A DNA stretch of 64,000 nt from Candidatus Kapaibacterium sp. (GCA_013414795.1 CP058732.1:1275950-1339949); one strand, 5' to 3'. Shown: positions 22,260 through 26,600, counted from the stretch's first letter. The notes: generated by a model not told the origin, from the letters alone. Numbers and translations are program-made.

Positions 22260-25200
22260 ATGAAAAACTTCTTTAAATTTTTGGTTCTTATTTTTGCTTC
22301 TTCTTTGTTGTCCTATTCTCTCCGCGCTGGCGATTCCTATTCAGATGAAGATATCAAGACGATGTTGCCCAAAATGCTTGGTGCGAACAATGTCGGCAAG
22401 GAATTTTGGTTTACTATCCCGCCTTGTTTGGAAGACGAAAGCTATGGCTACGCAAATTTTGTTAAAATTTATGTTACCTCGCCTTATAGAACTTTGGTTA
22501 AAGTCGAAGTCCCAGGTAAATCTTTTTTGCAAACTAAAATGACAATTCCAAACGATGTTATAGAGTTTAGTTTGAATCCAACTGTTGCCCAATGTTACAC
22601 CCGTTCCTATTACACTAAGGAAAATCCTGATGATGTATTCATTGGTAATGGTATTAATGTAGTAGCAAATGAACCAATTGTTGTCTATGCAGTTGTTCGC
22701 TATCGATACACAAGCGATGGTTTTCTTGCAATTCCAGTTTCCTCTCTTGGTAAGGAATACATTGCTGCTGGTTATCCCGTTGATCCGATGTTTGAGGCTG
22801 GTGGTGTTTATATTCCCGGCTTTGTTGGAATTACTGCCGCATACGACCAGACAACCGTGCGGGTAACCATTGGTGGTAATGCATATACAAGGACAGCTGG
22901 AGGGTTAAGAGCAGGACAAACAGTTCAAAAAGTATTGAATCGTGGCGATGTCTACTTGATTTCAACCCAAGGTCAGGCATCAGATTTAACTGGAACAAAA
23001 ATTATTGCAAACAAACCCGTTGCAGTTGTAACCGGTAACCAATGCACAAACATTCCAAATGGAAATAGGTGGTGCGACTACACTGTTGAAATGGATTTGC
23101 CTACTTTTACCTGGGGCTATGACTATCACGTTCCAAATGTCCCCAAACTTCCTAAAAGAAAAAAGCCTTCTTTATTAAGGATTTTTGCTAAAGAAAAAGG
23201 TACCACGCTTTATCGTGATGGGAGAGAGTTTGCTTATTTGAAAGCAAATACTGGTTTCGAAGGAGATGGTTGGCTTGAAACCAGAATGAATGTGGGAGTT
23301 CCCGATTATCAGAGTTATCCAGTTGTTATTTCCGGCAACAAACCTATTTCGGTCACCCTTTACAATACCGGCGTTGAAGAAGATGGCTATCCTCGTCCAA
23401 ATTCCGACCCATTTGTTATGGCTATGACCCCATATCAACAATATCAAAAGGAGATCACTTTCTGTACACCTGCAACTTTTGGTGGCCAACGTTTCGCAGA
23501 AAATTATCTCGGCTTAGTTTATCAAACCGATGAATATGGTATGTGCCCAGACCATATCGAGTTTGCAGAAGTTAAAAGTGGCCAATTCGTTTGGAAAAAA
23601 GTTAATGTTCTTTTCCCCGGTGTAGATGATATCTATCGTTACGATATAGATGGTAAGAAGTATGCTTATAAAGTTATTCTCCTTTCAAAAGATGGTGTTT
23701 ATAAGATTCGGGCTAAAACTCCATTTGCTTGTTATTCTTACGGGTTCGATTCTTACGACTCCTATGGGTATCCGACATCGGCGGCTCTTGCAGATTTGGA
23801 GAAGCCAGACACATTGCCACCCGACCCGAAATGGCGTGACTCTTGCGGCGTGATTTCCTTTGCGACTGTTACCGATATGCCCGACGACCCAACCATCCGA
23901 AGCAATATGGCGATGATTGTACTCCATCCATACCCCGAATCCTACAATGTTGATTTCAAATACACCGACTTCATTCCAGGCGAAGCTCGAACAGTGCCCT
24001 GGCGTTTGGAAGTAGTGGACAAGACGCAAGATGCACGCGCGGTCATTACATTTTCCGACCGTCGTGGCAACGACACAACGATAGTCATCGAATACAAAGC
24101 GGTGAAATTGACGATTCGTCCCTCCTTTGCCGATTGGGGCTTGTTGAAGCAGAACAGTGGGCGAGTATCGAAAGAATTCTGGGTGATAAACGAGAACGAG
24201 CAAAGCGCTGCTCTTGTCACGAGTTTGCAATTGAAGAGCCGAAACCAATACTTTGAAATCGATATGTTAGGGCGTTCGCTTCCGTTCTGGCTTGGACCAA
24301 AGGATTCTGTGAAGATTCTTGTTTGGTTCGACCCAGTAGAGAACGGAACTTTTGCCGATTCGATAGGAGTGGGCGACACTTGCGTATTTGCATACAAGAC
24401 GCGAGTGCAAGCCTCAGTTGGACAGCCGATTATTGAGGTAAGCGATATAAATTTTGGTTCAGTAACAGTTGGCAACACAGTTGCCCGCGAATTTGCGATA
24501 CGCAATCCTGGGACAACAGATTTGCACATCTGGGGCTACACTGGACCGACGAACGCAATCGTATACAAGGCTACGACTTTACCACCAGTAGATGTAAACA
24601 ATCGATTAGCGAATGAAATTGTAGTCAAGCCTGGACAAGAAGTTCGTTACACAGTGGAATTTACGCCAGATGCCGAGCGTGATTATCCCGACCAAATCAT
24701 CTTTTTCAGCGATGCAGCCGAAAGAGACAGCATATGTGAGTTGTATGGAATTGGAATCAAGCCCGGCTTGGAAAGCAATTCATACAATTGGGGAAGGAAG
24801 CGAATCGACAGAGCAAGCCATCCAGCGGGACCATATCCAGTGCCAAGCGGTGATGTAATCAAGTTGCGTAACACTGGGACACAAGAAGTGCATATCAGCG
24901 GATTGATTGTTGTTGAAGACGTAAACGGAGACGCATTTGAGTTCGACCGAAATGTATTCAACAATTTGAAATTGCAACCGGGCGAGGAGACAGTAATCCC
25001 GGTGGTATTCCATCCGACAAAAGTTGGAGAACACAGGCTAAGATTGAAATTCCAGAACACAGCCAACAGCGAAGCAGAGACGATACTCGAAGGAATTGGA
25101 ATAGTTGGGCAACTTGAAACGATAGATTTGACATTCGACCCGATGGTAATCTTCGACGATGCGAGCAAGCAAACCAAGACGATGTATATCGAGAACAAGT

Positions 25201-26543
25201 CGTATCAATGGGAAGATTCAGTTGTGATAACTGATTTGGTAGTAAATCCGGCGGGAGCGATAGCCGAGGACGGAACAAGTTATGGAACCGAAGGCTTTGG
25301 CTACGACAAGGCTGCGTTGGATTTGCCAGTTGTGTTGCAACCTGGCCAGAGGTTGTATCTGGATGCATACTTCGTAGCCCAGAAGGTACAGCCGACGAGC
25401 GCCACATTGACAACCGTAAGCGACGCGATTGCCGAGGTAACGAGTACCTGGAGCGGTTCGGGAATATCGCGAGGCATTCGTTCCACTGGTGGAAGCGCCA
25501 AGATATGCGTTGGCGACCGAGCCGAAATCACTTGTCGAATCGAGAATCCGGCGCAAGGCGAACTAACAGTGAACCGGTTGTACTTCAATGGTGATTTCGA
25601 AGGAATAGCATTTTTGAATCCAGCCGATGCGCTGGGCTTCAAGATACCAGCCGGAGGCAGTCGAGAAGTGAAGATAGTCTATCAACCGACGAAAGTCGAG
25701 AAGAAGCAAATCTGGTTGATGATAGAGAACAACACATTGGACAAGAATCCCGACAGTTGTGCCATAGATGTCGAGGCAGTACAATACAAAGGCACAGCAA
25801 GGTTGAATGTGGTTGCGCCGCAGATAGGACGAGCCTGGCCAGCACCGGGCGACAAGATACCCGTTTCGATAGAATTTTCGACAAGCGACAACTTGATACT
25901 TGCGCAAGTCAAAGAATTAGAAGTTACTGTGAAGTACAAGCCCGGCTTGTTGAAAGTCGACCAAGCCAGCATAGAAGTTGGTAGCATATTAGAAGGCAGA
26001 TTCACAGTACAAGACTTAAAGATAGACGATGTGAAAGGCGAAATGACATTGAGATTAGTAGCGACAGGGACGAACATTTTGAACGGAAGCGGACAGATAT
26101 TGCGATTCAAGTTCGATTCGTTCTTGCCGACGGCGGAAGTTGGTTCCGACTATTCGACGCTCGAAGTAAATGTCGAGGCGATGGGAACCCAATGCTTACT
26201 TGTCGACGACATAGGAAGCGAAGTGAAGTTAGTGCCGACGTGCGTATACGATTTGCGCTGGATAGCAACGACTGCGAACCAATACTACTTGGGAGCGATA
26301 AGCCCGAACCCAGTGAAAAACGGAGCGATAGATGTCAACTTTGGCGTAGCGTTCGATGGATGGACAGAGATAGTGATAATTAACACCAAGGGCGAAGTTG
26401 TGAAGCGAGTAACGACGGGACAGATGCGAGCGGGCGACTACACAGTGCGAGTGGACGTTAACGACTTGCCTAACGGAATGTACATCATCACAATGGCAAG
26501 CGAACACTTCCGCCAAAAACAAGAATTCGTGATTACGAGATAA
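22260..26543 (+). CDS. Giant T9SS cargo protein: IgGFc-binding-like N-domain + repeated ASH/PapD-like (choice-of-anchor-D-type) beta-sandwiches + cohesin-like module + T9SS CTD
   Basis: 1427 aa with a GGGAGG SD and a signal peptide. N-domain strings GKEFWFTIPP, KIIANKPVAVVTGNQCTNIP..WCDYTVEMDLPTFTWGYDY. Recurrent FGSVTVGNTVAREFAIRNPGTTDLHI-type repeats. CTD ISPNPVKNGAIDVNF...LPNGMYIITMAS...FVITR. The ORF call is high confidence; the domain names are by eye. Confidence 0.85.
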   Translation: MKNFFKFLVLIFASSLLSYSLRAGDSYSDEDIKTMLPKMLGANNVGKEFWFTIPPCLEDESYGYANFVKIYVTSPYRTLVKVEVPGKSFLQTKMTIPNDVIEFSLNPTVAQCYTRSYYTKENPDDVFIGNGINVVANEPIVVYAVVRYRYTSDGFLAIPVSSLGKEYIAAGYPVDPMFEAGGVYIPGFVGITAAYDQTTVRVTIGGNAYTRTAGGLRAGQTVQKVLNRGDVYLISTQGQASDLTGTKIIANKPVAVVTGNQCTNIPNGNRWCDYTVEMDLPTFTWGYDYHVPNVPKLPKRKKPSLLRIFAKEKGTTLYRDGREFAYLKANTGFEGDGWLETRMNVGVPDYQSYPVVISGNKPISVTLYNTGVEEDGYPRPNSDPFVMAMTPYQQYQKEITFCTPATFGGQRFAENYLGLVYQTDEYGMCPDHIEFAEVKSGQFVWKKVNVLFPGVDDIYRYDIDGKKYAYKVILLSKDGVYKIRAKTPFACYSYGFDSYDSYGYPTSAALADLEKPDTLPPDPKWRDSCGVISFATVTDMPDDPTIRSNMAMIVLHPYPESYNVDFKYTDFIPGEARTVPWRLEVVDKTQDARAVITFSDRRGNDTTIVIEYKAVKLTIRPSFADWGLLKQNSGRVSKEFWVINENEQSAALVTSLQLKSRNQYFEIDMLGRSLPFWLGPKDSVKILVWFDPVENGTFADSIGVGDTCVFAYKTRVQASVGQPIIEVSDINFGSVTVGNTVAREFAIRNPGTTDLHIWGYTGPTNAIVYKATTLPPVDVNNRLANEIVVKPGQEVRYTVEFTPDAERDYPDQIIFFSDAAERDSICELYGIGIKPGLESNSYNWGRKRIDRASHPAGPYPVPSGDVIKLRNTGTQEVHISGLIVVEDVNGDAFEFDRNVFNNLKLQPGEETVIPVVFHPTKVGEHRLRLKFQNTANSEAETILEGIGIVGQLETIDLTFDPMVIFDDASKQTKTMYIENKSYQWEDSVVITDLVVNPAGAIAEDGTSYGTEGFGYDKAALDLPVVLQPGQRLYLDAYFVAQKVQPTSATLTTVSDAIAEVTSTWSGSGISRGIRSTGGSAKICVGDRAEITCRIENPAQGELTVNRLYFNGDFEGIAFLNPADALGFKIPAGGSREVKIVYQPTKVEKKQIWLMIENNTLDKNPDSCAIDVEAVQYKGTARLNVVAPQIGRAWPAPGDKIPVSIEFSTSDNLILAQVKELEVTVKYKPGLLKVDQASIEVGSILEGRFTVQDLKIDDVKGEMTLRLVATGTNILNGSGQILRFKFDSFLPTAEVGSDYSTLEVNVEAMGTQCLLVDDIGSEVKLVPTCVYDLRWIATTANQYYLGAISPNPVKNGAIDVNFGVAFDGWTEIVIINTKGEVVKRVTTGQMRAGDYTVRVDVNDLPNGMYIITMASEHFRQKQEFVITR

Positions 26544-26569
26544 GATGTATTTACATTAGTTCTACATAA

Positions 26570-26600
26570 AGCCTGCGGAAAATCTCCGCAGGCTTTTTTA
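26570..26600 (+). terminator. Rho-independent terminator
   Basis: AGCCTGCGGA-aaatc-TCCGCAGGCT (10-bp GC-rich stem) followed by TTTTTT, 27 nt after the stop of the giant gene. Confidence 0.8.

Follow-up and report, generated by a model that had tools for sequence, protein, structure and literature searches.

Why should a single reading frame be written in two different sets of codons? The question is raised by gene A, which lies in a 64,000-nt stretch of Candidatus Kapaibacterium sp. (GCA_013414795.1, CP058732.1:1275950-1339949), referred to below as the window, and which encodes a surface protein secreted by the type IX secretion system (T9SS). The gene is laid out as a signal peptide, an IgGFc-binding-like head, Ig-like repeats and a T9SS sorting domain, and at the end of the head its base composition changes abruptly. 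A preliminary description of this DNA, made from the sequence alone, explained the change by a recent in-frame import of the C-terminal ~930 residues from a donor of higher guanine plus cytosine (GC) content. Our analysis retains the domain-level mosaicism claimed there, in that the C-terminal ~930 codons evolve differently from the rest of the gene, and arrives at a different origin for it. Taken as a whole, the best explanation is probably a tail shared with paralogous genes through gene conversion, with the composition step at the 5' edge of the shared tract. This tract, which encodes the Ig-like repeats, the other C-terminal modules and the sorting domain, starts with the codon ahead of residue D500 (DSYGYPTSAALADLEKPD) and includes the first two bases of the stop codon.

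The composition step within gene A

In 300-nt windows the GC content goes from 0.38-0.42 (23300-23749) to 0.52 (23750-24049), holds 0.43-0.56 up to 26599 and is 0.34 beyond the stop codon. The earlier figure of "50-55% GC" over 2.8 kb catches a real rise but overstates its level, since the mean of the tract is only ~0.48, with peaks of 0.52-0.56, as compared to ~0.39 before 23750. The GC content of third codon positions (GC3) increases from 0.31 over codons 1-493 to 0.53 over codons 494-1427, whereas that of first and second positions (GC1, GC2) is almost constant; the composition switch in gene A is synonymous. T occupies 0.19 of the third positions in the tract (T3). By maximum likelihood the change falls at codon 493 (nt 23739), codons 488-512 forming the 2-log-likelihood support interval, and its log-likelihood ratio of 31.1 compares with a maximum of 11.5 among 5000 permutations. 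The abrupt intragenic switch of composition and codon choice was thus correctly recognised, as was its position: aa 497-503, where it had been placed, fall within the support interval, and the IgGFc-binding-like domain at whose end it was said to lie (PF17517) ends at aa 495, where the recombination boundary is also found.

The remaining open reading frames (ORFs) of at least 200 aa in the window have a GC3 of 0.26-0.36, with no 200-codon stretch above 0.42, and no other gene of the GC content of the tract, which had been named as a possible refutation of its foreignness, is present in the window. Judged on these 64 kb, the composition of the tract is atypical for the host. ORFs of at least 80 aa number 9-10 per 2.8 kb in the tract and 1-7 elsewhere in the window, in line with the pile-up of antisense frames reported before, which arises because T and C are scarcer at the sense third positions. 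An antisense gene behind these open frames was considered and rejected, the ORFs being short (at most 195 aa) and spread over three frames.

At four-fold degenerate sites of the coding strand T falls from 0.47 in the head to 0.17 in the tail and G rises from 0.06 to 0.27, while A goes from 0.24 to 0.35 and C is flat. In the two-fold families G/(A+G) rises to 0.53-0.80 in the tail, and the rare Ile codon ATA increases from 0.07 to 0.47 at the expense of ATT, so that T-ending codons give way to rare G-, C- and A-ending ones. The codons favoured in the tail are rare in the genome and differ from those used in rplU and rpmA (190 codons, from a close relative). As C is flat at third positions and ATA goes up, the shift is unlike the codon usage of a GC-richer genome. 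The amino acid composition of the tail also moves GC-ward (GARP up, FYMINK down), in this clade only.

The abruptness of the break, and the many contigs of metagenome-assembled genomes (MAGs) that stop just beyond the junction, could be taken as signs of an assembly chimera in which two organisms were joined in frame. A near-identical stretch occurs in the public runs X1-X20. Unitigs of X3 and X4 (22385-23849), X2 (23472-23972) and X5 run through the junction at 23739 with no mismatch, and a unitig of X9 likewise spans it. In four metatranscriptome runs from microbial mats (X6, X7, X8 and X11) gene A RNA contigs cross it too, one X11 contig corresponding to 22988-26093. The metagenomes are unrelated to each other, and dozens of genomes encode ~1420 aa in this same in-frame arrangement. 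L001, assembled independently from the same species, is syntenic, 97.4% identical over 24 kb and carries the same step, and the contig ends are accounted for by the 2.8-kb repeat described below. The unitigs and RNA contigs across the junction refute a chimera, and the probability of such an artefact is negligible. The runs with the near-identical stretch come from groundwater, the subsurface, sediment, hot springs and microbial mats, habitats in which the species is thus widespread.

A tail shared between paralogues

The assembly graphs contain a second unitig of 1474 nt, which is unlike the window through 23752 (encoding ...PFAAYSYGFSD), matches it at 23753-23849 with four differences and joins the window path at 23820-23849. 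This unitig belongs to a second gene, paralogue B, and its depth is similar to that of the N-half of gene A in X4 (86.2 and 85.7, respectively), X3 (15.2 and 17) and X9 (20.6 and 25.4). The tail in X4 is made up of long shared unitigs at a depth of ~140, as compared to ~85 in the flanks (~1.6x), and of bubbles with two variants at depths of ~73 and ~85; long shared unitigs with small two-variant bubbles imply an identity of A and B of ~99.5%. After 26542 a second, unrelated flank follows, and on the other side a loose unitig end at 22368 carries upstream sequence of B's own, the graphs branching at an island of 47 nt in which A and B differ by one mismatch. This island may be either a mini conversion tract or a case of very strong conservation. 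The CAZXYS pair has a comparable island, of 47 identical nt.

Among the relatives, the B loci L086 (GCA_037478895.1) and L087 both contain the exact B-specific 30-mer. Compared to these two, gene A is 67% identical in nucleotides and 68.5% in amino acids before D500, and 97-99% identical after it. In L087, a close relative, the B locus consists of alaS, coaE, an amidotransferase gene, rplU, rpmA, a TPR gene, a small ORF and B. The same MAGs contain both A and B, and transcripts of each are present in situ. The equal depth, the separate flanks and the common MAGs, gathered from public metagenomes and from relatives' assemblies, are those of two copies at different loci. Within the 64-kb window itself blastn and tblastn (E<=1e-5) found no paralogue of gene A and no cassette relative, so that any sharing of its C-terminal part (25795-26543) with other genes of the window would be remote, and a scan of metagenome contigs for an exact B-specific 26-mer gave no match.

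Since the data are wholly metagenomic, A and B might also be two alleles of a single locus, each from a different strain in the same sample. In X4, however, the depth of the flanks (85.9 and 84.5) matches that of the A head alone (85.7) and not that of A plus B, and B has its own upstream and downstream flanks. The ratio of A to B is about 1:1 in three unrelated samples, and both share MAG bins, all of which makes the allelic interpretation very improbable.

The same arrangement was found in other species by a scan of contig ends, using one genome per species. In the close clade, contigs stop shortly after the junction, between residues 516 and 578; this is where two or three distinct N-halves per MAG break off, and small contigs carry the C-half alone. 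In CAZGCT01 the N-half contigs L040 and L068 are identical over their last 53 nt, and contig L007, which carries only the C-half, opens with these 53 nt at the D500 codon. Counting CAZGCT01, the same sharp boundary recurs in four Kapaibacteria MAG species besides that of the window. Short-read assemblies break at one fixed residue because the tail is a shared repeat, and the truncated "partial IgGFc-binding protein" entries of many MAGs are a consequence of these breaks.

In the three other MAG species the identity of the paralogues is 62-72% up to D500 and 98-100% beyond it, and over five species the identity downstream of D500 is 97-100% within each. Pairwise comparison of three MAGs gave identities before the boundary of 0.73-0.83 for A-A, 0.75-0.77 for B-B and 0.62-0.72 for A-B pairs; after the boundary they were 0.98-1.00 within and 0.73-0.83 between species. 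Paralogues of one species share species-specific synonymous variants in the tail. The tail thus groups by species and the head by A or B type, and from this pattern of sequence identity we conclude that the tail very probably undergoes concerted evolution with its paralogue or paralogues. The heads of A and B are old duplicates, and the tail would be repeatedly homogenised within the genome by non-reciprocal homologous recombination (gene conversion). On the 5' side the tract may be limited by the collapse of homology at the domain junction, and on the 3' side by the stop codon, beyond which the flanks are unrelated.

Comparison of strains bears on the same point. Between X4 and the window there are 0 mismatches in the flanks and the N-half, and 31 differing sites (~1%) in the long shared unitigs of the tail; for L001 and the strain seen in the RNA data the relation is reversed, the head being 3-4.4% and the tail 0.8-2.2% divergent. 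Such opposite divergence of head and tail indicates that the genealogy of the tail is uncoupled from that of its surroundings. In remoter relatives the contig ends lie elsewhere, at residues ~612 (L078/L084), ~765 (L075 and L076) and ~1030-1056 (L047/L052, L014, L072), and in L047/L052, the BIN8 pair, near-identical patches alternate with divergent ones. It seems that different parts of the tail are homogenised in other lineages.

Origin of the codon shift

If the tail had come recently from a foreign donor, separate searches with the two parts of the protein should have returned different best-hit taxa, as the preliminary description expected. Searches run with residues 1-495 and with residues 500-1427 gave identical relatives in the same order, with amino acid identities for head and tail of 98 and 99% (P0002), 84 and 79% (P0003), 70 and 67% (P0004) and 63 and 47% (P0005). 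Dozens of ~1420-aa proteins of the same architecture are present in Kapaibacteria and Ignavibacteria, and in FastTree trees, calculated without bootstrap, the clade lies beside or inside the same ortholog group for head and tail, so the tail does not show the incongruent phylogeny of a horizontally acquired segment. The upstream aminotransferase neighbour is retained in L001, L004 and L005. The proposed comparison with sister genomes showed that the step recurs at the homologous codon in L001 (GC3 from 0.30 to 0.54) and L003 (from 0.30 to 0.485) and, more diffusely, in L002 (from 0.28 to 0.47); it is absent from L004, which is flat, and weak in L005. All members of the clade have it, down to ~67-68% amino acid identity, and recency also fails as a mark of the segment. 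At conserved residues third-position identity between the window and L003 or L002 is 0.50-0.54, and 0.40 for the remotest pairs; a step common to lineages with near-saturated synonymous sites has to be old and maintained. Judged by these comparisons the tail is not a recent foreign import: head and tail agree in their closest relatives, the step is old and the partner in recombination is a paralogue of the same genome. When the window is compared with L001, their divergence does not change at 23739. It is patchy, with 59-70 differences per 500 nt at 20000-20999 and 0-5 in many other bins, which suggests recombinational imports elsewhere in the region.

What then keeps the composition of the tail apart from that of the head? 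The GC3 jump at D500 is present in every A, B and C paralogue of the five species (from 0.18-0.43 to 0.44-0.61; the B head has a GC3 of 0.33-0.35), and eight homologues which are assembled through and give no sign of a shared tail have no overall GC rise; on these grounds the step is tentatively attributed to a conversion-linked bias. Inside the tract, stretches in which A and B agree have a GC3 of 0.56-0.58, and the bubble zone one of 0.45. GC3 is raised only in the converted tract and by way of non-optimal codons, as GC-biased conversion would have it, and head and tail are under the same promoter, on the same messenger and the same strand, with only the converting stretch shifted. The unusual codon usage would then be kept up in the converted tract as a side effect of conversion, through a bias in repair or in fixation. 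That conversion-linked bias causes the codon shift is a tentative proposal, which we regard as possible and as the likeliest of the causes considered.

Several observations weigh against this account or parts of it. Simple GC-biased conversion predicts a joint fall of A and T, and the strand-symmetric change from weak (A, T) to strong (G, C) bases is not what is found, T being depleted, A increased and C flat. The near-identical tracts of the BIN8 pair lose T3 with almost no gain in GC3, and L005, which is assembled through, has a weak version of the same shift. L007 gains C rather than G, which simple GC-biased conversion does not predict either. The BIN8 and CAZXYS pairs are only suggestive as replicates, being confounded by position along the gene. 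Polarised synonymous counts gave tail GC3 equilibria of 0.52-0.70, which would suggest stationarity, together with implausible head values in the close pair; they are biased by saturation and mis-polarisation and were left unused. As to the paralogue itself, no full-length B is found in the protein collection, B being always cut at the junction in assemblies, and short reads cannot assign the heads to the downstream flanks.

The strand asymmetry leads directly to another explanation, in which selection on the messenger or on translation favours T-poor, purine-ending codons in the tail and conversion is coincidental. Possible selected effects are slow decoding while the Ig-like domains fold, an unstructured RNA, or the avoidance of Rho and RNase targets. 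The loss of T and gain of purines on the coding strand do point to the RNA or the coding strand and not to a strand-symmetric repair bias, and the weak versions of the shift in L005 and in the BIN8 pair fit as well. On the other side, eight to nine other members of the family have the same domains and lack the shift, rplU and rpmA favour other codons (again the 190-codon sample), and the amino acid composition moves the same way as the codons. The shift moreover begins exactly at the conversion boundary in every paralogue and is weaker where the copies differ, and we consider selection of this kind unlikely. Less likely still is an ancient import, by which the tail was taken once, in the ancestor of the clade, from the homologue of a GC-richer relative and then spread by conversion, its present composition being an incompletely ameliorated relic. 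The composition atypical for the genome, the restriction of the step to one clade and a drop in identity to the next ortholog group that is larger in the tail (47%) than in the head (63%) would agree with it. Yet the tail branches within the same ortholog group as the head, and a faster tail is the norm in this family (L004 vs L005: head 73%, tail 48.5%). Despite near-saturated synonymous sites the tails retain a GC3 of 0.44-0.54 beside heads of 0.28-0.35, and a relic must have started from a GC3 of ~0.85 with GC1 and GC2 unchanged, which is implausible; flat C3 and increased ATA are, again, unlike a GC-rich genome.

Related systems and features of gene A

Partial concerted evolution of this type is described for the outer-membrane-protein paralogues babA/babB and homA/homB of Helicobacter pylori, two or three genes at separate loci, in which the 3' segment evolves in concert by RecA-dependent gene conversion and the 5' or middle, ligand-binding part is divergent (Pride & Blaser 2002, reviewed in PMC3960876). 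Gene A and its paralogue resemble these in being surface-protein genes at separate loci with a uniform 3' segment and a divergent 5' part. They differ in encoding T9SS cargo instead of Hop-family beta-barrels, in their phylum (Kapaibacteria/Ignavibacteria group), in the much longer tract (2.8 kb, two thirds of the gene), which is bounded by a domain junction and the stop codon, and in the strong codon-usage footprint. For such a footprint the nearest precedent is the work of Lassalle et al. 2015 (PMC4450053), according to which bacterial GC3 is higher with frequent recombination, by way of non-optimal GC-ending codons and mostly at synonymous sites; H. pylori is an exception in that work, its recombining genes not being GC-richer. 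The rise of GC3 through non-optimal codons, strongest at synonymous sites, is common to both cases. Here, in distinction to GC-biased gene conversion (gBGC) as described there, the contrast lies within one gene, amounts to 22 GC3 points, is tied to conversion between paralogues and not to recombination between strains, and is strand-asymmetric, T being lost and A kept, which that model does not predict. With mosaic genes made by horizontal transfer gene A shares the abrupt in-frame composition change at a domain boundary, but not an incongruent phylogeny, a foreign nearest relative or a patchy or recent distribution, and the partner is an intragenomic paralogue. The phenomenon is a known one, partial-gene concerted evolution of surface-protein paralogues, here with a compositional footprint that is unusually strong and, in its asymmetry, odd.

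For the biology of this uncultured lineage, concerted evolution in a T9SS cargo would replace horizontal transfer as the reading of the mosaic, variable binding heads being combined with a common stalk and anchor. It is conceivable, though we put it forward with some reserve, that conversion itself yields a distinct and stably kept synonymous composition, the locus being a natural within-gene experiment in five species and in each paralogue. If so, this would be unusually clean evidence of recombination-associated repair bias shaping bacterial base composition, and the strand-asymmetric spectrum, with its loss of T from the coding strand, would fall outside current gBGC models. In any case the sharply bounded tract, replicated across species, offers a system for testing whether conversion skews bacterial base composition, and it cautions that an abrupt intragenic GC step alone does not prove foreign DNA.

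The features of the locus are collected in Table 1. The uninterrupted frame up to a T9SS sorting domain, followed by a putative terminator, was correctly described before, and so were the ASH-type repeats, for which the choice-of-anchor D match reaches 58.9 bits in NCBIfam (cut-off 45). The sorting domain scores 35.4 bits with PF18962 (cut-off 27) and 23.6 bits with TIGR04183 (cut-off 23); with a tail domain above curated cut-offs and a signal peptide read from the sequence, gene A has the characters of a T9SS type A cargo. A cohesin-like module had also been proposed, at ~aa 1170-1345, and was not upheld, as this part has no Pfam cohesin match and no PDB sequence match at E<=1.

Table 1. Position of gene A, its domains and the related sequence features in the window
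Feature	Coordinates	Strand	Remarks
Gene A, T9SS-secreted surface protein	22260..26543	+	single 1427-codon ORF (1427 aa)
Probable Sec signal peptide MKNFFKFLVLIFASSLLSYSLRAG	22260..22331	+	read from translation
47-nt A/B identity island, encodes PKMLGANNVGKEFWFT	22368..22414	+	one mismatch, alignment
IgGFc_binding PF17517 head, aa 153-495	22716..23744	+	Pfam E=1.8e-50
GC3 change-point support interval, best nt 23739 (codon 493)	23724..23796	+	
Probable concerted-evolution tract, 2.79 kb, ~99.5% identity to paralogue B	23753..26542	+	
Ig-like choice-of-anchor D / ASH-type repeats, aa 717-950	24408..25109	+	
T9SS type A C-terminal sorting domain, aa 1347-1425	26298..26534	+	
Terminator-like hairpin, 12-bp stem (7 G-C pairs) and T-run	26568..26606	+	beyond shared tract

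Some minor observations concern transcription and annotation. The RNA contigs of X7 and X8 start 21-25 nt 5' of the gene A ATG (22235-22239), and a promoter-like TTGAAA-16-GATAAT at 22212-22239 adjoins these starts. An Illumina adapter at the exact ORF ends of the X6 RNA contigs was dismissed as a graph artefact, being absent in X7, X8 and X11. The genes flanking gene A have almost zero RNA depth in the mat metatranscriptomes. Finally, many "binchicken" third-party annotation (TPA) MAG records titled "uncultured Hyphomicrobiales bacterium" (L007, L011-L014, L018, L020, L022 and others) carry Kapaibacteria/Ignavibacteria genes, and their titles look wrong.

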